A stretch of DNA of 32,000 nt from NCBI GenBank assembly GCA_963752375.1, contig CAVVYF010000026.1:82320-114319 (forward strand), given 5' to 3'. The notes beneath the pieces were generated by a model. It worked only from the letters and a program-made list of their open reading frames with translations. It ran no database searches and was not told where the DNA came from. The stretch comes from Terriglobia bacterium (GTDB lineage: Bacteria > Acidobacteriota > Terriglobia > Terriglobales > Acidobacteriaceae). Shown here one piece after another: positions 3,116-32,000 of the stretch; the stretch's first letter is position 1; every line of letters begins with the position of its first letter. Made by a program: the position numbers and the translations under genes.

Positions 3116-3287
3116 GTCATCCCGAGCGCCGCATCGAGCCGCGCTTGCGCGGTGAGAGCAAGTCGAGGGACCCCTATCGTGCCGGGGACTCATCGGTTTG
3201 TAGGGGTCCCCTCGGCTTCGCTCGGGGCAGGCTCTTCGACTCCGGAAGCGCTTCGCAGAGCGAAGCACTGACTCCGCTCAGGATGAC
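3116..3287. repeat. Composite palindromic intergenic element, copy A (divergent member)
   Basis: Inverted termini are GTCATCCCGAGCG (3116-3128) and CGCTCAGGATGAC (3275-3287). Inner inverted boxes are GTCGAGGGACCCCTAT and GTAGGGGTCCCCTCG. The right arm has the hairpin GCTTCGC-AGA-GCGAAGC (3250-3266). The element fills the gap between two convergent stop codons (3104 and 3290). Confidence 0.85.
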
Positions 3288-8316: not shown

Positions 8317-9519
8317 ATGACTTCCGACTCCAGAACCGCGCGGAACGACGCCAGCACAACTACCGCCGACATCGTGATCCTCGGTGCCGGCGTCATGGGC
8401 GCCTCTATCGCGTTCCAGCTCGCCCGGCGCCAGGCTGGAAAGATCGTGGTCATCGACAAGGGTCATGTCGCGCAGGGAGGCAGTGGCCGTTCCTCCGCGT
8501 TGGTGCGCATGCACTACAGCTATCCACCCGAAGTGCAACTTGCTCTGGTGAGCCTGCGGATGTTCGAAAACTGGCGCGACGTAGTCGGGCCAGAAGGAGA
8601 CTTCCACAAGACCGGATTCGTGCGCATCGTTCATCCAGGAGAAACAGATCGCCTGAAGCAGAATGTGGAAATGCAGCGCCGGCTCGGAGTGAACGTAAAA
8701 CTCATCGATCGTCAGGAACTCAAAGACCTGGAGCCGGATTGGGCGGTTGATGAAGTCGAACTGGCCGCCTACGAACCCGATTCCGGCTACGGCGACGGCG
8801 CCGGAGTGGCCAACGATTTCCTCACCCGGGCCCGGGAACTGGGAGTCACCTACCAGTCGAAGACGCAGGCCCTGGAGTTTCTGGTCGAAGGCGGACGCGT
8901 GCGCGGAGTCAGCACGGTCCACGGGGACATTGCGGCGCCGGTCGTGGTTTCGGCCACAGGACCCTGGACCCAGCCCCTGTTTCAGCACATAGGAATCGAA
9001 CTGCCGATTGAGACGGAATACCACCAGGTAGCGATCCTGAAAAATGCTCCCGGCATGAAGGGTGGCGGGTGCGCCTGCATCGATTCGGTCAGCGCCACCT
9101 ACTTTCGCTCTGACGGGCAGGACAAATTTCTGATCGGAGATTTCTACGGCCGGCGCGGAGCTGATCCGGACAACTTTCCCCAGCGCGCATCCGACGATGG
9201 CCTGGAAGAAATCATCGAGCGGGCCAGCCGCCGCATTCCCAGGCTGGAGAATGCCGAAGTCATGCGCGGCGTAACCGGAGTCTATGACATGACGCCGGAT
9301 TCACGTCCGCTGCTGGGCGAAGTTTCAGGCGTCGCCGGACTGCATGTTTGCGCCGGTTTTTCCGGCATGGGCTTCAAAATTTCACCAGCGATTGGCCTGG
9401 TAATGTCGGAGTTGTTGCTGGACGGGCGCAGTAAGACAGTGGACATCAGCTCGTTCTGTCCGGGACGGTTTGCGGCCGGCCAGCCTATCAAGGCAGAGTT
9501 CGAATACAAAGACGACTAG
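8317..9519 (+). CDS. FAD-dependent oxidoreductase, DAO family (sarcosine oxidase beta / dimethylglycine oxidase-like)
   Basis: It has the DIVILGAGVMGASIAFQLARR Rossmann motif and GGSGRSSALVRMHY. The C-terminal CAGFSGMGFKISPAIG and the ~400 aa length are typical of DAO-family enzymes. Confidence 0.8.
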   Translation: MTSDSRTARNDASTTTADIVILGAGVMGASIAFQLARRQAGKIVVIDKGHVAQGGSGRSSALVRMHYSYPPEVQLALVSLRMFENWRDVVGPEGDFHKTGFVRIVHPGETDRLKQNVEMQRRLGVNVKLIDRQELKDLEPDWAVDEVELAAYEPDSGYGDGAGVANDFLTRARELGVTYQSKTQALEFLVEGGRVRGVSTVHGDIAAPVVVSATGPWTQPLFQHIGIELPIETEYHQVAILKNAPGMKGGGCACIDSVSATYFRSDGQDKFLIGDFYGRRGADPDNFPQRASDDGLEEIIERASRRIPRLENAEVMRGVTGVYDMTPDSRPLLGEVSGVAGLHVCAGFSGMGFKISPAIGLVMSELLLDGRSKTVDISSFCPGRFAAGQPIKAEFEYKDD

Positions 9520-9532
9520 TTCGTCGGGACAT

Positions 9533-9734
9533 GTCATCCTGAGCGGAGGCTTTCCATTCGCTCGCGAATGGAAAGTCGGAGTCGAAGGACCCCTACCGTA
9601 CAGGAACTGTTAATTGAGCAGCGATTTTCGCCGGCTGCAAATGCAACGTTGGCACACGGCGGCTTGGAGGAATAGGGATCCTTCGACTCCATGACTGCCT
9701 CGCGAAGCGAAGCAGTCACTGCGCTAAGGATGAC
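9533..9734. repeat. Composite palindromic intergenic element, copy B
   Basis: Left arm: GTCATCCTGAGCG, then hairpin CTTTCCATTCG-CTCG-CGAATGGAAAG (9550-9575), then GGAGTCGAAGGACCCCTAC. Right arm: ATAGGGATCCTTCGACTCC, then hairpin GACTGCCTCGC-GAA-GCGAAGCAGTC (9693-9717, one mismatch), then GCGCTAAGGATGAC. It lies between the DAO stop and the bhmt ribosome-binding site. Confidence 0.9.
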
Positions 9735-10791: not shown

Positions 10792-10821
10792 GGGCCAGCC
10801 TCCGTGGCTGGCCCAAGTTTT
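10792..10821. terminator. Rho-independent (possibly bidirectional) terminator after bhmt
   Basis: The stem is GGGCCAGCC (10792-10800) paired with GGCTGGCCC (10806-10814), with loop TCCGT. It is followed by AAGTTTT and preceded by AAAACAAAA. It starts 22 nt after the bhmt stop, in a convergent intergenic region. Confidence 0.7.
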
Positions 10822-22916: not shown

Positions 22917-22949
22917 GGATCCTTCGGAACTGAAGTTCCTCAGGATGAC
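22917..22949. repeat. Relic half-unit of the composite palindromic element family
   Basis: GGATCCTTCGGAAC (inner box) is followed 8 nt later by CTCAGGATGAC (terminal box). Order and orientation are correct, but the hairpin module is missing. It lies in the divergent intergenic region. Confidence 0.55.
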
Positions 22950-23675: not shown

Positions 23676-23732
23676 ACCGTTCTCGCTTCGAGCAATAATT
23701 CGAGACAACGCTGATTCAAAAGAACCGGCACT

Positions 23733-23917
23733 GTCATCCTGAGCGGAGGCATTCCCTTCGCTTGCGAAGGGAATGCCGGAGTCGAAGGACCCCTATCCAT
23801 GGTCGAACGCGGTTGAAACCAGGAATCTCCGCGGTGCGCACGCTGTGTTTGACAATAGGGGTCCTTCGACTCCACGACTGCTTCGCGAAGCGAAGCAGTC
23901 ACTCCGCTCAGGATGAC
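23733..23917. repeat. Composite palindromic intergenic element, copy C (best-preserved)
   Basis: Left arm: GTCATCCTGAGCG, then a 13-bp hairpin GGCATTCCCTTCG-CTTG-CGAAGGGAATGCC (23748-23777), then GGAGTCGAAGGACCCCTAT. A 58-nt spacer follows. Right arm: ATAGGGGTCCTTCGACTCC, then an 11-bp hairpin GACTGCTTCGC-GAA-GCGAAGCAGTC (23876-23900), then CCGCTCAGGATGAC. It lies between convergent genes. Confidence 0.9.
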
Positions 23918-23984
23918 AAACCTGGGAGTTGGTCTGACCTGCGGCGTGCCACCGGCGAATCACGGATTTTCACTTCCAATCTGC

Positions 23985-24167
23985 TTACCCCTTCTTCTTT
24001 TCGAGCTCCGCCCAGCGCCGATAGAGTTCGTCCACCTGGCCCTGCGCTTCTTCCATCTCAGCATTCGCGCTCAGAAGGCGCGGACCGTCGCTCGCAATCC
24101 CCGGGTCTTCCAGTTGCTCGCGTTTGGCCTGCAATAGTTCTTCGGCCGCCGCAACGCGCTCTTCAAT
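23985..24167 (-). pseudogene. Detached C-terminal coiled-coil domain of the Uup-like ABC-F gene (shifted frame)
   Basis: The frame-2 translation IEERVAAAEELLQAKREQLEDPGIASDGP...QVDELYRRWAELEKKKG matches the Uup-type C-terminal domain. That domain normally follows the LSY.E.RE motif, and that motif ends the upstream frame at 24163-24200. The two parts are joined only if one nucleotide near 24166-24170 is removed. Confidence 0.7.
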
Positions 24168-25791
24168 GCTCGGCGTATTCCCGGGCTTCAAGATACGAAA
24201 GCCGTGTCTTTCCCGAAGATTTTCCTGCAGAATTTTCGGAGCGAGCGGCGGGACGCGCGGAAGTTCTCGCTGCTTCCCTTCCCTCCGCCTGCCAGACCTC
24301 CCATTGCGAGTAGTCGGCAAAACTTTGCGCGCCGCCGCGTCCATTCAGGCCAAGAACGATGGTGGAAACGCGATCGAGCATGTAGCGATCGTGCGTAACC
24401 AGCACCAGCGATCCCTTGAACTCGAGCAGACTTTCTTCCAGGATTTCGAGCGTCGGAATGTCGAGATCGTTGGTCGGTTCATCCAGCAGAAGCACATCCG
24501 CCGGCTGAAGCATGAGTTGGGCGATCAACACCCGCGCCCGCTCGCCGCCGGAAAGCCGCTCCACCGGCTGGTTGAGCTGCTCTCCGGTGAACAGAAACTT
24601 CGCCGCCCACGACGCCACGTGAATGACCCGGTCCTGATAGATCACCGAATCGCCTTCCGGCGCCAGCGCGCGGCGCAGGGTCACGTTCGAATCAAGTTCG
24701 CGGGTCTGGTCGAAGTACACGATGCGCAGCCATTCGGCCCGGCGAATCTCTCCGCCGCCGGCGGTCAACTCTCCCCGCAACAGCCGCAACAGGGTGGTTT
24801 TGCCGCTGCCATTCGGCCCCACCAGGCCCACCCGCATACCGGCCGTGATCACAAAATTGAGCTTCTCGAACAAGGTGCGGCCTTCGATCTGGTAAGCCAC
24901 ATCCTCCAGTTCGATCAGCCGCTTGGTCTTGCGGTCGGTTGCCGAAAAATCGATCTGCGCCGTCGCCGTGCGGGTCCGCACGTTCAGGTCTGCGAGGTCC
25001 TCCATCAGCTGACCGGCTTTGCCGATGCGCGCCTTGGATTTCCTGGTGCGGGCCTTGGCCCCGCGCCGCAGCCACTCAATCTCGTTGTGCACAAGATTTT
25101 CCAGCGCTTCGTGGCGCTTCGATTGGGCGTGCAGAAACTCTTCTTTCTTCTCCAGGAAGGTTGTGTAATTTCCCCGCACCCGCAGGATGCCGTCGGGATA
25201 CACCCGGCTCAGTTCCGCCATGTCGGTGGCGATATTCTGCAGAAAGTAGCGGTCGTGGCTCACGATCACGCTGGCAAACGCGGCTTGCGCCAGTAGATCC
25301 TCAAGCCACTCGATGCCCTCCAGGTCGAGATGGTTGGTAGGCTCGTCCAACAGCAGAATGTCCGGCACCTGCACCAGGGCCTCCACGATCGCGAGGCGTT
25401 TCTGCCATCCCCCGGAAAGAGCTGCGGCTTCGGCGTCAAGGTCTTCAAACCCGGCGCGGCCCAGGGTTTCCGCAAAACGCGTCCCGCGTTCCGTGGCGTG
25501 GACTGCGCTCCGCTCCATGGCTTTCTCGGCCACGGAACGTACGGTCGCGCCAGAGTCGAATTTGGAATCCTGCTCCACGTAGCTGACCCGGAGCCGCTTT
25601 CGGAAGGCCACTTCTCCGCTGTCCGGTTCTTCGCTGCCGGCCAGAATTCGCAGCAGGGTGGATTTGCCGGAGCCGTTCGGACCAATGAGCCCGATCCGGT
25701 CCCCATCCGTAACGGTGAAGGACACATTCTGAAAGAGCGGGTTCGCTCCAAAGGCCTTCGAAATTTCCTGGACATTAATGATCGGCGGCAA
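24163..25791 (-). CDS. uup: ABC-F family ATPase, Uup-like (main frame, prematurely terminated by a 1-nt frame disruption)
   Basis: Walker A motifs are GPNGSGKST and GPNGSGKTT. Signature motifs are LSGGWQKRLAI and LSGGERARVLI. Walker B motifs are LLLDEPTNHLD and LLLDEPTNDLD. The TTG 25791 start has GGGGAG upstream. The frame ends at ...RLSYLEAREYAEH-stop, exactly where the C-terminal domain should begin. Confidence 0.8.
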   Translation of the reverse strand: MPPIINVQEISKAFGANPLFQNVSFTVTDGDRIGLIGPNGSGKSTLLRILAGSEEPDSGEVAFRKRLRVSYVEQDSKFDSGATVRSVAEKAMERSAVHATERGTRFAETLGRAGFEDLDAEAAALSGGWQKRLAIVEALVQVPDILLLDEPTNHLDLEGIEWLEDLLAQAAFASVIVSHDRYFLQNIATDMAELSRVYPDGILRVRGNYTTFLEKKEEFLHAQSKRHEALENLVHNEIEWLRRGAKARTRKSKARIGKAGQLMEDLADLNVRTRTATAQIDFSATDRKTKRLIELEDVAYQIEGRTLFEKLNFVITAGMRVGLVGPNGSGKTTLLRLLRGELTAGGGEIRRAEWLRIVYFDQTRELDSNVTLRRALAPEGDSVIYQDRVIHVASWAAKFLFTGEQLNQPVERLSGGERARVLIAQLMLQPADVLLLDEPTNDLDIPTLEILEESLLEFKGSLVLVTHDRYMLDRVSTIVLGLNGRGGAQSFADYSQWEVWQAEGREAARTSARPAARSENSAGKSSGKTRLSYLEAREYAEH

Positions 25792-27672: not shown

Positions 27673-27766
27673 GTGATTTCCTTCGTGTACCTTCGTGTCC
27701 TTGGTGGTTAAAGCTCTTTAAAAAGCATGAACCACGAAGGACACGAAGGTACACGAAGGCAATCAC
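27673..27766. repeat. Large palindrome (37-nt arms, 20-nt loop) made of 10-nt CCTTCGTGT subrepeats
   Basis: The left arm is GTGATTTCCTTCGTGTACCTTCGTGTCCTTGGTGGTT (27673-27709). The right arm is AACCACGAAGGACACGAAGGTACACGAAGGCAATCAC (27730-27766). 35 of 37 positions are complementary. The right arm overlaps the lldD stop codon, and the left arm ends 28 nt before the lctP start. Confidence 0.9.
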
Positions 27767-28947
27767 CGCCAGGTCGCTGGCACATCCACGTATGACCGGT
27801 CGAGTGCCGCAATGGACGTGCAGCCCAGCAGTTTGAGGGTGCGGTCCACATCCGCCCGCAGGATTTCGAGCGCGCGGGCCACGCCAGCTTCGCCGGCGGC
27901 AGCCAGGCCATACGCATAAGCGCGCCCGCAGAGAACGGCTTTCGCACCCAGACAGATGGCCTTGACGATATCGGAGCCGCGTCGAATCCCGCCGTCCATC
28001 AAAACTTCGATCTGCCCGCCAACGGCCGCCACCACTTCGGGCAGCGCCCGCAACGAAGGAGATACGCCGTCGAGCTGGCGTCCGCCATGATTCGAGACGA
28101 CCACCGCGGCCGCGCCCGCATCCACGGCACGACGAGCGTCGTCTCCGGTGAGCAGGCCCTTGATCACGATCGGGCCGGGCCAGTGCTTGCGAATCCAGCC
28201 CAGGTCGTCCCAGGTCACAGCCGCGCGGGCCAGCGCCGCCGCAACGTCAATCAGCTCCATCGGTCCCTTGCCCGGGATGACTACGTTCGGCAGCCTGGAC
28301 AAACCGCCGTCGAGCAGGTAGCTGACCAGCCATCCGGGACGCGCCAGCATTTGGGGAAGAAATGGAATCTTCGACAGCAGGCTGCCGCCCATCAGTTCTT
28401 TCATGCCATTGCGGAAGTCGCGCTCGCGCATTCCCGCTACCGGCGTGTCGATGGTGACCACCAGGGCGGCGCAGCCCGCGACTCGCGCCCGTTCGATCAC
28501 CGCTTCAGAGGCCTCCCGGCCTCCCATCAGGTACAGCTGAAAACAAACCGGCCCGCTGGAAGCGGCTTTGACGTCCTCCACCCGGTGGCCGGAGATGGTG
28601 GAAAGAATGTATGCCGTGCCCGCTTTGCCGGCGGCGCGCGCCGCGCCCGCCTCGCCGTCTGGATGCATAAGCCGGCTGTAGCCCACGGGGGCCAGTATCG
28701 CCGGAAATGAAATGTCGAAACCCAGCACGCGCGTCCGTAAATCACAATTCGACAAGGGCACGGCATAACGCGGCCGGAACATCACGTCATCAAAGACACG
28801 GCAATTCTCGCGCAGCGTAACTTCGCCGTCGGCCCCGCCATCGAGATAATCAAAAACCGGACGGGGCAGTCGAAGGCGGGCCAGGGGCCGGAAATCCCCG
28901 ATGCTGACCACATGGGGCGAGGCCACTGCCCGCGACCCTCTGCTCAT
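27763..28947 (-). CDS. lldD: FMN-dependent alpha-hydroxy-acid dehydrogenase (L-lactate dehydrogenase LldD-like)
   Basis: Family motifs are FDYLDGGADGEVTLRENCRVFDDVMFRPR, SNHGGRQLDG and GGIRRGSDIVKA. ATG 28947 is preceded by GGAGG (28958-28954) with a 6-nt spacer. The 845-aa ORF extension upstream is non-coding read-through. Confidence 0.85.
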   Translation of the reverse strand: MSRGSRAVASPHVVSIGDFRPLARLRLPRPVFDYLDGGADGEVTLRENCRVFDDVMFRPRYAVPLSNCDLRTRVLGFDISFPAILAPVGYSRLMHPDGEAGAARAAGKAGTAYILSTISGHRVEDVKAASSGPVCFQLYLMGGREASEAVIERARVAGCAALVVTIDTPVAGMRERDFRNGMKELMGGSLLSKIPFLPQMLARPGWLVSYLLDGGLSRLPNVVIPGKGPMELIDVAAALARAAVTWDDLGWIRKHWPGPIVIKGLLTGDDARRAVDAGAAAVVVSNHGGRQLDGVSPSLRALPEVVAAVGGQIEVLMDGGIRRGSDIVKAICLGAKAVLCGRAYAYGLAAAGEAGVARALEILRADVDRTLKLLGCTSIAALDRSYVDVPATWR

Positions 28948-29070
28948 CGCCTGCCTCCAGCGGGAGAACCATTTCGCTCCATGCATGCCCCCAAAATTCT
29001 GCGACCCGGATTTACCGAAGCACGCGATTATACCGGAGAGCCCTTGCAACGGCGCGGATGCACTCGCAGT

Positions 29071-29106
29071 CCTTCCTTCGTGCACCTTAGTGACCTTTGT
29101 GGTTAA
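29071..29106. repeat. Solo half copy of the CCTTCGTG palindrome arm
   Basis: TCCTTCGTGCACCTTAGTGACCTTTGTGGTTAA matches the left arm at 27678-27710 in 29 of 33 positions, in the same orientation. It lies in the divergent region between lldD and the beta-helix gene. Confidence 0.7.
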
Positions 29107-29148
29107 CGGTTTCGAGAGCTGTGATATGACTGAAAGTTCATTCCGCGG

Positions 29149-29943
29149 ATGATGGTGATCGAAATGACCAGATCTTTCAGACCTCTCGCCCTCCTTGGCA
29201 TCGCGATGGTTGGACTTCAATTCATGGCTGCCGCTCAAAGCCAGACTGCACGGCCGGTCAAGTACGCAACTGAATACGACTGGTCGATGAGTCCGGCCGA
29301 GGAACAGGGTCAGGCGGGCGCGCTGACGGTGAGTCTCCCTTCCTGTCCGCCGGGGGTAAGAGGAAACGAACCTGAATATTGGGTGCTCATCAACGGGTCG
29401 GAAGCCGCCCGGGTCACAGGCGGAACCTGCGCCGGAGACGGTCGTCCCGGGACCCTGCAGTTGCTGGGCAAGCACGCCCATCTCGCGGGAGAAACTCTTT
29501 CGAGCGCATCCGGCGGGCTGCAGGAAGCACTCATTGCCGCGCGTTATACGCCCACCAATCCTGCCGGCACCCCTCAGTCCGGCATGGTGGTGGTACCGCC
29601 AAAAGAATTGAAGGCATTCGCGCGCGTTTCGATCCGCTCTTCCAACCTCACCGTGGATTTCTCCGGCTCCATCCTTGAATGCTGGATGGACGACGCCTGC
29701 ATCTTTGTCGGCGACCCTGCAAACTCCAACGCCTATCAGGACATCACCCTGATCAATCCCCGCGGACGTCCCACTATCGCGCACGGTCAAAAGCCCTTCA
29801 TTGAGGTGAACGCGCAGAAGACCCGGCTGTTCAACGTGTCCACCCGGGTCCCGCTGAAGGGTGGAAGCTTCGGCAGCTATGTGCAGGTGGACGACGACGA
29901 ATCTTCCTGCTGGACGGACTCGATACCGGCCTGGGCAACGTAG
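29149..29943 (+). CDS. Secreted right-handed beta-helix (pectate-lyase-fold) protein, N-terminal part (frame-disrupted gene)
   Basis: The signal peptide is MTRSFRPLALLGIAMVGLQFMAAAQS; candidate starts are ATG 29149, 29152 and 29164. Its LQEALIAA...VVVPP...IRSSNLTVDFSGSILEC pattern resembles the start of pectate_lyase_3-type beta helices. The coding signal leaves this frame near 29899. Confidence 0.6.
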   Translation: MMVIEMTRSFRPLALLGIAMVGLQFMAAAQSQTARPVKYATEYDWSMSPAEEQGQAGALTVSLPSCPPGVRGNEPEYWVLINGSEAARVTGGTCAGDGRPGTLQLLGKHAHLAGETLSSASGGLQEALIAARYTPTNPAGTPQSGMVVVPPKELKAFARVSIRSSNLTVDFSGSILECWMDDACIFVGDPANSNAYQDITLINPRGRPTIAHGQKPFIEVNAQKTRLFNVSTRVPLKGGSFGSYVQVDDDESSCWTDSIPAWAT

Positions 29944-29945
29944 GC

Positions 29946-31343
29946 GTGCGCTGCGATGCCGCGGTCTGCGATCCTGTGATTTACGCGCCGGGATCCTTCC
30001 GCACCTTCCCCGGTGTGGGCTGGCTGAAGAACCTGAATATTTCCCTGCAGTGCGGGGGCAATGGAATTGACTGGCAGGCCGGTAATACCTTGCGAATCTC
30101 CGACAGCGTGATTCAGGGCTACCCGCAATACGGCGTTCGAGCCGGCGTGCAGCGCGGCGGCTATGGCGGCTTTGACCTGACCAACGTGTACGAAGAAGTC
30201 GGCAACTGTTCCAATCCGTCGGGCAGGATTGGGCAAGCCGGCGTGATCGCGCAAGGCAGCCGCGTGAAGATTCAAGGCGGAGAAGCACCCACTGGATCAT
30301 TTCCGCAATTTGCCCGGACCGGAAAGACGGACTACCGTTACTACGTTGTTGCCCGGCACGGCAGACACGGAGCCTCGAATCCTCTTTATGCCGGCAGCGC
30401 GCTGACCAATGGAGTCGGCAACATCGCCGTGACCACGCCGGACATCAGGGGCGCCGCCACTTTCGATCTGCTGCGAGTTTCTCCGGTCGCGGGGACGCGT
30501 GAGCAGGCGCCTTACGGGACCGGGAACTTTGCCGTCGCGACCAACGTTCCCCACAGCACAGCCTGCTCACATGGCGTTTGCACCTTCACCGACACCCAGG
30601 CTGCCCTGCAGCCCTACAAGGTGGAGCTCCCAACCTACTTTCCTCTGCTCGATTTCTGGCCGGGAAATCTGGTGTTAAGCGCGAGCCAGGATTCCAATAG
30701 CGTTCTGGCAGGGGCGCGAGCCTGGATGGATAGTGCTCCTTCCAGTGTGGTGGCGGTGCAGGGAACCACCGCGCCCGCGCTGATTTCCACGAATTGCGAT
30801 TCGCTTTCCGGCTGGACACCATTGTGGCTGAGTTGCTATTCAGCCATGGCTCCATCGGTGTTTTACGAGCAGGGAGCCTTCCTGCTGGCGGTCAAACCCA
30901 ATGCCGACGGCGGCCTGCGCACCAACCTGAAAGGCCGCATGAATTTCTCCACTCTCGGAACGGGACCGGGACACATCCTCACGCTCTCCGATTCCAATTT
31001 CCAGAAAACCATTGCGACCGCGAACAATCGGCCAACCAATGATGCCAACGATGCCTTCATCGGCTACGACCAGGGCGATGGGAACCCCGTGCACGTCGGA
31101 ATCAGCTTCGGCGCCCCCAAGTCGCTTTCCAACTACATCGGCAATGCCGGGGATGGAAAGAAATGGCTGGAGCGTCTTACCTCCGACCTCAAGATGTTTA
31201 CCGTCCCGGTTTCCATTCCATCGGTCGCGCCCCGCCACGCCTCCGACCCCTGCGTCGCGGGCACGGAAACCTGGGATTCGAACTTTATCTATGTATGCGT
31301 AGCGAAAAACACCTGGAAGCGCGCAGCGCTGTCGTCGTGGTAG
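29946..31343 (+). CDS. Same beta-helix protein, C-terminal part in the -1 frame
   Basis: This frame is open from 29805 and looks like protein from about 29901 (IFLLDGLDTGLGNVGVRCD...). PbH1-like repeats are present (NLNISLQCGGNGIDWQAGNTLRISDSVIQGYPQYGVRAG). GTG 29946 is merely the first start codon in the frame. It has no recognisable RBS or N-terminus of its own. Confidence 0.6.
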   Translation: MRCDAAVCDPVIYAPGSFRTFPGVGWLKNLNISLQCGGNGIDWQAGNTLRISDSVIQGYPQYGVRAGVQRGGYGGFDLTNVYEEVGNCSNPSGRIGQAGVIAQGSRVKIQGGEAPTGSFPQFARTGKTDYRYYVVARHGRHGASNPLYAGSALTNGVGNIAVTTPDIRGAATFDLLRVSPVAGTREQAPYGTGNFAVATNVPHSTACSHGVCTFTDTQAALQPYKVELPTYFPLLDFWPGNLVLSASQDSNSVLAGARAWMDSAPSSVVAVQGTTAPALISTNCDSLSGWTPLWLSCYSAMAPSVFYEQGAFLLAVKPNADGGLRTNLKGRMNFSTLGTGPGHILTLSDSNFQKTIATANNRPTNDANDAFIGYDQGDGNPVHVGISFGAPKSLSNYIGNAGDGKKWLERLTSDLKMFTVPVSIPSVAPRHASDPCVAGTETWDSNFIYVCVAKNTWKRAALSSW

Positions 31344-31349
31344 TTCGTT

Positions 31350-31568
31350 GTCATCCTGAGCAAACTCCGGCTGTCATCCTGAGCGCAGAACGCCGATTCG
31401 CTTGCGAATCGGCGTTCGGAGTCGAAGGACCCCTATCGCAACACCACAGCCTGAGTCATAGTTGATTTTGTTCCGCAGTGTCGGCTTGCCACCGGCGAGG
31501 ATGGAATAGCGGTCCTTCGACCGCGTTGTGGCTTCGCGAAGCGAAGCCACAACTTCGCTCAGGATGAC
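31350..31568. repeat. Composite palindromic intergenic element, copy D (with duplicated left terminal box)
   Basis: An extra box GTCATCCTGAGC sits at 31350-31361. The full left arm from 31373 is GTCATCCTGAGCG, then a 13-bp hairpin GAACGCCGATTCG-CTTG-CGAATCGGCGTTC (31388-31417), then GGAGTCGAAGGACCCCTAT. Right arm: ATAGCGGTCCTTCGACCGC, then a 13-bp hairpin GTTGTGGCTTCGC-GAA-GCGAAGCCACAAC (31525-31553), then TTCGCTCAGGATGAC (ends 31568). Confidence 0.9.
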
Positions 31569-32000
31569 CGCTAAGCCGCCCGCCAATGCCGCAATCGCCC
31601 TGGCCGGTGTCGCAGCTCTGCCGTTCACCTTCAGCAACAGATCAGAAATGGTCTCCTGATCGGCCGGCTTCGAGAAGTAATAGCCCTGGGCGAAGCCGCA
31701 GTCCAACTCCTTGAGCTGGTTCACTTGCTCTTCGGTCTCGGTTCCTTCGGCGACTGTCACCAGTCCCAGCGTCTGGGCCAGCATGATGATGACCTGGACA
31801 ATCTTTTGGCTCTCAACGTCGCTGTCCATCTGCGAGATGAAGGCCCGATCGATCTTCAACGAATCTACTGGAAAGCGCTGCAGCCGGCTGAGGGACGAAT
31901 ATCCCGTGCCGAAATCATCCACGCTCAGGCGAACTCCCAACGCCTTCAATTCAGAAAAGACAGAGGCTGCCTTCTCCGGATCGCCCATGGCAATGGTTTC
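31374..32000 (-). CDS. EAL-domain protein (c-di-GMP phosphodiesterase-type), 3' part; continues beyond the window
   Basis: EAL-domain C-terminal motifs are LSVDDFGTGYSSLSRL, LKIDRAFI, VAEGTETEEQ and AQGYYFSKP. The frame is open through position 32000. The last 64 codons and the stop codon (31376-31374) lie inside repeat copy D. Confidence 0.8.
   Translation of the reverse strand, partial: ETIAMGDPEKAASVFSELKALGVRLSVDDFGTGYSSLSRLQRFPVDSLKIDRAFISQMDSDVESQKIVQVIIMLAQTLGLVTVAEGTETEEQVNQLKELDCGFAQGYYFSKPADQETISDLLLKVNGRAATPARAIAALAGGLAVILSEVVASLREATTRSKDRYSILAGGKPTLRNKINYDSGCGVAIGVLRLRTPIRKRIGVLRSG

Follow-up and report, generated by a model that had tools for sequence, protein, structure and literature searches.

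A 32,000-nt stretch of DNA from a Terriglobia bacterium (hereafter the window, meaning the whole stretch that was analysed) carries four copies of a composite palindromic element, and the question it raises is what kind of repeat this element is and what, if anything, acts on it. A first-pass annotation of the same DNA described the element at 23733-23917 as resembling the REP/BIME repeats and could name no described family for it. A family can now be named: judging from sequence comparison, the units of which the element is built are in all likelihood the acidobacterial counterpart of the NTS/SRM repeats that accompany the Ssn GIY-YIG single-stranded DNA (ssDNA) nucleases, a kind of repeat that has been known since 2025, here in a new architecture. 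The units are assigned to this kind because of the gene that they flank in relatives and because they share with the published repeats the GTCAT 5' flank and the 3' C. The element, referred to below as composite 3, has the following parts:

23733-23917: composite 3, two inverted long-form units around a 59-nt unique spacer, recognised by its boxes and the fold of the whole element
23733-23795, + strand: left unit (A arm) of composite 3, recognised by sequence, unit alignment and covariation
23796-23854: spacer of composite 3, unique, as blastn-short against all loci matched only the spacer itself
23855-23917, - strand: right unit (B arm) of composite 3, with the same modules as the left unit and a P2 hairpin of GTGACTGCTTCGC-TTC-GCGAAGCAGTCGT

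The left unit reads, in order, GTCA, the 5' strand of a stem P1 (TCCT), GAGCGGAG, the hairpin P2 (GGCATTCCCTTCG-CTTG-CGAAGGGAATGCC), GGAGTCGA, the 3' strand of P1 (AGGA), and a tail CCCCTA. Folding of the whole of composite 3 (region 23725-23925) gives a four-way junction, far more stable than shuffled sequences (z = -16 and -14 for the two strands).

Each unit is one irregular hairpin on the strand that reads GTCATCC. The unit had been described as a terminal box (GTCATCCTGAGCG), a hairpin and an inner box (GGAGTCGAAGGACCCCTA), the last of these forming a 6-bp hairpin of its own; instead, the terminal and inner boxes are the two strands of the single stem P1, because the changes that occur in them are compensatory. 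When positions 5-8 (TCCT) differ, the four bases after CGA change to match, which yields the P1 variants TCCC/GGGA, TCTT/AAGA, TGCT/AGCA, TTCT/AGAA, CCCT/AGGG, and TTCC/GGAA, and the pair G11:C is replaced by A:T in three loci (GAG...CGA to GAA...TGA in L074, L081, and L119). Across 204 units, all four P1 pairs exceed every shuffle, and the 6-bp hairpin had to be given up, its pair 46:59 being Watson–Crick in 42%, the same as in shuffles, and its pair 47:58 being A·C in 197 of the 204. The covariation was scored on a gapless alignment of 64 non-redundant 56-nt units, picked by anchors that exclude the tested positions, with the structure ....((((..((...(13 bp)...(13 bp)...).)..)))) as the one tested. 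In this alignment 92.8% of cells are paired, as compared with 72.6% in shuffles, 17 of the 19 pairs change on both sides, and the covariation score is 0.532 versus 0.150 in shuffles, with none of the 500 shuffles reaching the observed value and slid controls remaining at 0.08-0.13.

The fold model, written for the GTCATCC strand, begins with (T)GUCA, followed by P1 (UCCU/AGGA), a tandem G·A, a G:C pair, a C:G pair with a bulged U, a symmetric GNA/GNA loop, and P2. The latter is a 13-bp hairpin whose apex is semi-conserved (TTCGC-NNN-GCGAA) and whose outer stem varies almost freely, with 130 distinct 9-mers counted among 140 hairpins; that the stem sequence differs between copies, as had been noted for the window, is borne out in the unit alignment. 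The flanks are far more constant: GTCA is invariant in the 64-unit alignment, the position before it (-1) is T in 208 of 242 units, and AGGA is followed by a C or T able to pair with A4 and then by a conserved C (226 of 243 units). Within the P2 stems 87 G:T pairs stand against 48 A:C, and the internal loops are purine-rich on the GTCATCC strand only, which together point to one functional strand. The units come in a short form of 23 nt (GTCATCCTGAGCGNAGCGAAGGA), an intermediate form, and a long form of 56-58 nt plus a tail, which is the type present in the window. The short form is a hairpin closed directly by GCGNAGC, and the long form is the same hairpin with P2 inserted in that triloop.

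The gene that accompanies the units was found among their neighbours. When the 935 open reading frames (ORFs) in 0.93 Mb around units (120 sequences) were clustered, no widely recurrent neighbour family emerged, the largest cluster covering 6 loci, and the only cluster lying directly between units consisted of three small ORFs of ~100 aa (in L063, L080, and L115), which carry a GIY-YIG domain (PF01541, E about 1e-11 to 1e-14). The association was also found from the side of the protein: among 80 metagenome loci chosen by the GIY-YIG protein alone, 69 had enough flank, and units lie within 250 nt on both sides of the gene in 46 of these 69 and on at least one side in 64. Unit density is 3.69/kb within 300 nt of the gene versus 0.20/kb elsewhere in the same loci, an 18-fold difference. 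The typical layout is unit(+)-gene-unit(-), in which the two units can form a perfect inverted repeat of up to 43 nt (L182; also L156 and L191).

The encoded protein is single-domain, ~95 aa long, and 48% identical (E = 3e-27) to the 94-aa SsnA homologue of Neisseria gonorrhoeae; the catalytic residues Y6, Y17, and E64, which were mutated in the study of SsnA (PMC11893778), are conserved in it. It also matches the UPF0213 structures 1ZG2 and 1YWL, and no model in NCBIfam or PADLOC matches it. Distant homologues in Planktothrix, Spirosoma, Azospirillum, N. gonorrhoeae, and Sinorhizobium are all flanked by GTCAT-hairpin repeats. Several of these cassettes have settings of their own. In L125 (370-1137) and in L207 the ssn gene lies between two direct, near-identical whole composites, an arrangement from which one unit of gene plus composite would be set free as ssDNA if the two same-strand units were cut. 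Cassettes with hairpin doublets are also seen within or beside housekeeping operons, as sufB-ssn-sufC on an Azospirillum lipoferum plasmid (L207) and as gltA-ssn-lpxB on pSymB of S. meliloti (L209). On plasmid p1 of Planktothrix agardhii (L205, 18241-19716) the ssn homologue is accompanied by stuttered partial terminal boxes and has an MmeI-type restriction-modification gene on one side and the DISARM helicase gene drmA on the other, which is a defence-island context.

The biochemistry of this family is known from Chenal et al., Nat Commun 2025 (PMC11893778), who defined NTS and the broader Ssn-related motifs (SRM) and described the Ssn/SRM system from Neisseria, Wolbachia, and relatives; neither Acidobacteria nor other soil phyla are mentioned in the main text of that paper. 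SsnA, a 94-aa cd10448 GIY-YIG protein, binds the NTS hairpin solely as ssDNA and on just one of the two strands, makes its cut a few nt upstream, and shows neither activity on double-stranded DNA (dsDNA) nor binding of RNA (PMC11893778). Cutting is controlled by three bases (GTC) upstream of the palindrome and binding by the C after it; in vitro, removal or extension of the loop is tolerated, and the sequence of the palindrome matters as well as its structure (PMC11893778). SsnA lowers transformation by NTS-containing DNA, and the authors themselves remarked on the IS-like layout NTS-ssnA-NTS and drew the parallel with REP/BIME/RAYT (PMC11893778). It was the Neisseria repeat CGTCATTCCCGCGCAGGCGGGAATCTAG and a search on dRS3 that led to this paper; a literature search by the box sequences returned only unrelated PCR primers, and searches on GIY-YIG together with MITE, REPIN, or COG2827/UPF0213 returned nothing relevant.

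The units are widely dispersed. An exact-pattern scan of 185,579 species genomes found at least 119 loci, and among the matches listed 109 are from Acidobacteriota (Terriglobia, Granulicella, Terracidiphilus, Sulfotelmatobacter, Korobacteraceae) and 10 from Eremiobacterota, Dormibacterota, and Verrucomicrobiota; when the listed loci were searched under relaxed conditions, the number of units rose to ~243. The distinction between a dispersed family and a local duplication, for which the first-pass annotation had proposed a genome-wide search, is thereby settled in favour of a dispersed family, mostly of Terriglobia. Short and intermediate units (GTCATCCTGAGCG...CGAAGGA) are also present on at least 120 predicted viral contigs (IMG/VR, L210-L329), and no Ssn-like protein is encoded in the fetched stretches (1.1 Mb) of 120 unit-bearing viral contigs.

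Adjacent units no more than 400 nt apart are arranged with terminal boxes outward ('+-') in 42 cases, in the opposite sense ('-+') in 3, and in tandem in 25, and the inner distances within composites are 28-139 nt, plus one of 325 nt. Roughly 122 units, about half, are true singles, also after a search for degenerate partners. The BIME-like doublets that had been proposed therefore hold as inverted pairs around non-conserved spacers, and elsewhere about half of the units stand alone. The proposal of distinct left and right arm subtypes has a similar outcome: there is a recurrent composite subfamily, to which window copies 2-4 belong, in which an A arm (ATTCG-CTTG-CGAAT) is joined with a B arm (CTGCTTCGC-NNN-GCGAAGCAG), and no general rule, as pairing in 31 composites is near random (arm-type parity 17/12/2 versus ~14/13.5/3.5 expected at random).

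Besides composite 3, which accounts for two of the nine units in the window, the following copies are present there, the nine being made up by four composites of two units each and one single short unit:

3116-3287: composite 1, with left unit 3116-3176 (+), spacer 3177-3200, and right unit 3201-3287 (-)
9533-9734: composite 2, with units 9533-9595 (+) and 9672-9734 (-) and spacer 9596-9671
22917-22949, - strand: single short-form unit, GTCATCCTGA-GGAAC-TTCA-GTTCC-GAAGGATCC, in a divergent intergenic region
31350-31362, + strand: orphan terminal box GTCATCCTGAGCA, 10 nt upstream of composite 4
31373-31568: composite 4, with units 31373-31435 (+) and 31506-31568 (-) and spacer 31436-31505

All boxes were found where the first-pass annotation had placed them, and its coordinates stand for copies 1-3; copy 4 is to be read as 31373-31568, the segment 31350-31362 being the extra orphan box, and the supposed relic at 22917-22949 is a complete short-form unit, the same variant of which recurs in L107 and L114 and for which the DNA fold consists of P1 and a small hairpin (z = -3.2). 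The terminal box, at up to 2 mismatches, occurs 11 times in the window versus 1.28 expected, a count which none of 100 shuffles reaches, and the inner box, at up to 3 mismatches, occurs 7 times versus 0.04 expected, which is likewise reached by no shuffle. The eight arms of the four composites can be aligned to a single ~63-nt unit in which the middle part is variable. Variation on this plan includes the left unit of composite 1, which is the P1 variant TCCC/GGGA (this left-arm variant is also found in L005 at 7232), the inner-box variant GCGGTCGAAGGACCGC in the right unit of composite 4, and stuttered terminal boxes, resembling the orphan box, in L048, L068, and L205. The right unit of composite 1 has an extra module, CCCCGAGCGAAGCCGAGGGG, nested within its inner box (3201-3233, -); this mini-module recurs in L076, L117, and L135 and is itself built as N4-GAG-CGAAG-CGA-N4', so that the GAG...CGA building block is reused recursively. 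Of the segments compared by blastn-short, only this module recurs, the window spacers having no match in other loci.

In the mechanism that we propose by analogy with SsnA, a cognate small single-domain nuclease of the Ssn family, encoded elsewhere in the genome between copies of the repeat, would bind the base of the hairpin; its presence in the source organism is assumed from its presence in relatives. It would act on ssDNA only and on the GTCATCC strand only, and would nick a few nt 5' of GTCAT, which for the left unit of composite 3 places the predicted cut on the + strand, a few nt 5' of 23732 (from PMC11893778). A gene-less inverted doublet would then present one cleavable hairpin per strand, with predicted cuts at its two outer borders. 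Doublets and singles would be non-autonomous copies, most likely descended from or spread by unit-ssn-unit cassettes, and composites would persist at tolerated intergenic sites, mostly at gene 3' ends. For the host, the Neisseria analogy suggests site-specific restriction or processing of ssDNA, be it incoming, replicating, or recombining. A bolder version of this mechanism, which we consider possible and on balance doubtful, is that the long-form composites are active REPIN-like replicators mobilised by the GIY-YIG ssDNA nuclease, with recognition by Ssn confined to the foot of the rod, namely GTCA, P1, the G·A loops, and the 3' C, and with P2 left free to evolve. Recognition of this kind would explain how the framework is kept in at least four phyla although nearly every copy has a stem of its own, and if this version were true, dissemination of hairpin repeats would for the first time have been shown for an enzyme outside the HUH class. 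We know of no transposition chemistry for Ssn.

It has to be noted that several observations weigh against an Ssn-type identity or an Ssn-driven spread of these elements. The published SRM pattern, HGTCWYN(0-2)YYVSBRHN(0-5)WNVSBRGN(0-2)RNCYNB, matches none of the 243 units and nothing in the window, while the controls from Neisseria, Azospirillum, and Sinorhizobium are matched by it; it was built from 29 genomes as a heuristic for searching and does not define function. The stem is interrupted by G·A, and the sequence of the palindrome is important for SsnA, so that recognition would have to have co-evolved. Nearest-neighbour DNA folding predicts P2 well and P1 in only 2 of 9 units, the energy model giving no credit to sheared G·A pairs. 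The window contains no ssn gene (tblastn, E <= 10), and its four copies have no target-site duplication; no clean insertion boundary could be drawn either, as the filled and empty junctions are too diverged. Finally, the spacers hold no remnant of an ssn gene or of a cassette leader, which leaves descent of the composites from full cassettes by deletion a supposition.

The strongest competing explanation is one of two separate parasites, the repeats and the nuclease gene, in which a GIY-YIG homing cassette targets pre-existing repeats, which themselves spread or persist by another route, such as recombination, replication slippage, or some transposase. The loci in which the gene lies between two direct whole composites and not inside one (L125 and the Azospirillum locus L207) fit such an invasion, as do the cassettes inside the suf and gltA-lpxB operons (L207, L209), the spacers devoid of gene remnants, and the share of single units, about half. 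Set against it are the many loci in which the gene sits within one inverted pair, with arms perfect to 43 nt in L182 (L156 and L191 being further examples), since this is the layout of an autonomous element with its miniatures; moreover, an ssDNA nickase without dsDNA activity (PMC11893778) would make a poor classical homing endonuclease. Taken together, separate parasitism appears unlikely.

The position of the copies relative to genes bears on a further alternative, namely that the elements act at the level of RNA, as a bidirectional terminator, a stabiliser of mRNA 3' ends, or a structured non-coding RNA, with the link to the nuclease being incidental. Most window copies are indeed at gene 3' ends, the folds are very stable (z = -16), and covariation alone cannot separate RNA from ssDNA. 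The convergent arrangement is less regular than it had seemed, three of the four copies having been described as lying exactly between convergent stop codons: this is true in the tight sense for composite 1 only, which is 11 nt and 2 nt away from two convergent stops. Composite 3 is 57 and 67 nt from convergent stops, composite 2 lies between co-directional genes for a DAO-type oxidoreductase and an S-methyltransferase, and an EAL-domain ORF on the - strand runs through composite 4, gaining ~65 element-derived codons before its stop TGA (31374-31376) in the far terminal box. This last case is an instance of a general effect, as ORFs that enter an antisense unit end in ...LRSG* (window 31374-31570, -; L063, 5103-5125; L115, 3018-3080) because CGCTCAGGATGAC supplies the TGA, and the ssn genes themselves often have their stop codon supplied by the antisense terminal box in the same way.

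Against an RNA role stands the 18-fold enrichment beside ssn genes, which is not what an incidental link would give, together with the fact that SsnA does not bind RNA (PMC11893778). No composite or unit is listed in a terminator scan of the window, which did find a canonical terminator at 10792-10814; no copy is terminator-like because none has a T run, and none of the window copies looks like a promoter. Single units lie sense to the flanking genes in 28 cases, antisense in 17, and in divergent intergenic regions in 15, and the orientation bias (28 versus 17, with crude gene calls) is not significant. Rfam gives no match in the window at gathering score, only chance-level ones at E <= 10 (the best at 26.8 bits versus a gathering score of 71.4). 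The hammerhead ribozyme (core CUGANGA...GAAA) was compared by eye and set aside, as the UGA of the core is missing and Rfam holds nothing for it. An RNA-level role as the primary function of the repeats is accordingly regarded as improbable.

Insertion polymorphism of the repeats is seen directly at one orthologous site, the intergenic region downstream of the oxidoreductase gene (window 8317-9519), as compared among relatives (percentages are identities of the flanking protein to that of the window):

window: the query, 252 nt intergenic, composite 2 present
L200: 94%, 117 nt intergenic, an unrelated GTAG...CTAC palindrome
L201: 92%, 249 nt intergenic, the composite present
L202: 91%, 267 nt intergenic, the composite present
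L203: 89%, 118 nt intergenic, an unrelated GTAG...CTAC palindrome
L204: 87%, 21 nt intergenic, empty

The same site is thus empty, filled, or occupied by something else, which indicates that intergenic hot spots acquire elements, lose them, or have them replaced, and the elements are also inherited vertically over roughly 10% protein divergence. The site provides direct evidence of repeat turnover, and it bears on whether Ssn cassettes are domesticated mobile elements. The replacing sequence (L200, 2707-2823; L203, 2707-2824) is a ~100-nt palindrome with GTAG...CTAC ends (GTAGCGCCGCCGTCCCGGCGGCTGTCC...GACAGCCGGCG.GACGCCGGCGCTAC), located exactly at the composite 2 site, and is possibly a RAYT-type REP family of Terriglobia.

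The same comparison is informative for the idea that the composites are a REP/BIME family mobilised by a RAYT, i.e. an IS200/IS605-like Y1 transposase. Such a family would account for inverted doublets of imperfect palindromes in intergenic DNA and for the single-strand structure of the units. However, the genuine GTAG...CTAC palindrome is a different element, which takes the place of the composite in L200 and L203, and the units carry TGTCAT and not the GTAG or CGTC tags. The gene which they flank encodes a GIY-YIG nuclease and not a Y1 transposase, and it alone was found directly flanked by units in the 0.93 Mb that yielded no widely recurrent neighbour family, a search that did not include a Pfam scan of all ORFs for PF01797. 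The first-pass annotation, which reported no RAYT gene in the window, was right in that none seems to be involved, and mobilisation by a RAYT is very improbable. An ordinary MITE (a miniature transposable element with inverted repeats), i.e. a deletion derivative of a DDE-transposase insertion sequence with terminal inverted repeats (TIRs) of ~60 bp, would match the inverted ends, the small size, and the presence/absence polymorphism, but is just as hard to credit given that target-site duplications are lacking at all four window copies, no locus has a transposase between inverted units, single units are as common as pairs, and covariation within an arm is not expected of TIRs that are bound by a transposase.

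Two further observations in the window concern other features. An ABC-F ATPase ORF (24163-25791, -) ends at 24163, and the C-terminal coiled-coil expected of it is carried on in another frame, as far as 23985 (23985-24344), which suggests a frameshift, a sequencing error, or a programmed overlap. At 27673-27766, between two minus-strand ORFs, repeats of the CCTTCGTG type form a near-perfect palindrome of 47+47 nt (TTCCTTCGTGTACCTTCGTGTCCTTGGTGGTTAA), a second half-copy of which is located at 29073-29106, inside the ORF 27763-30300; this is a repeat family other than that of the composites.

If the assignment of the units to the NTS/SRM kind is accepted, the Ssn/SRM system would extend to Terriglobia and other dominant soil phyla, and the published search motif would be missing a whole structural class of repeats. 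The natural covariation maps where the hairpin is under constraint, namely in GTCA, the G·A loops, and the 3' C, and where it can vary, namely in outer P2, and such a map is information for choosing or engineering new Ssn/target pairs for ssDNA tools. For annotation, it is of practical importance that ORFs running into the units are spuriously extended, with an end in ...LRSG*, and that the units are common in metagenome-assembled genomes from soil.

Among the known repeat systems, IS200/IS605 elements and the PATEs resemble the units in having subterminal ssDNA hairpins, no target-site duplication, and no TIRs recognised as dsDNA; they differ in that their end hairpins are direct on one strand and are served by a Y1 transposase, whereas the units described here are mostly inverted or single. 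The likeness to the REP/BIME/REPIN repeats goes further, including imperfect palindromes that serve as hairpins in ssDNA, an arrangement in inverted doublets, prolonged retention at orthologous sites, and a low-copy nuclease gene flanked by its own repeats. In that case the difference lies in the enzyme, which has a GIY-YIG and not an HUH fold, and in the units, which are modular, about twice as long, and begin with TGTCAT at 23-63 nt, in place of a GTAG or CGTC tag on a palindrome of 20-40 nt. In Neisseria, dRS3 is a 20-bp perfect palindrome, and the internal segments of NIMEs are repeat families themselves. The dRS3/NIME arrangement, in which inverted nuclease-associated hairpins bracket an intergenic segment of 20-140 nt, is matched by the composites, and the N. 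gonorrhoeae ssnA locus (L208) has the same inverted layout; unlike in the NIMEs, the spacers here are each unique.

The closest comparison is with the Ssn/SRM system itself. The acidobacterial units differ from the published repeats in that the stem is not a plain palindrome and is composed of 4 bp, a tandem G·A, 2 bp with a bulge, and a 3x3 purine loop, in that the loop is replaced by a 13-bp hairpin, giving a unit of 56-63 nt versus ~28 nt in the published case, and in the presence of inverted doublets and nested modules, such as the one in the right arm of composite 1; the hosts are likewise different, being Terriglobia and other soil phyla. What is shared is an oriented hairpin with (H)GTC(A/T) directly 5' and a conserved C directly 3', occurring in many intergenic copies. 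Shared, too, is the flanking of a ~95-aa GIY-YIG gene, with repeats nearby in 64 of 69 loci and on both sides in 46 of 69, as compared with 71% and 42% of the published ssnA homologues (PMC11893778). The tolerance of the NTS hairpin to extension of its loop in vitro is matched here by the natural insertion of P2.

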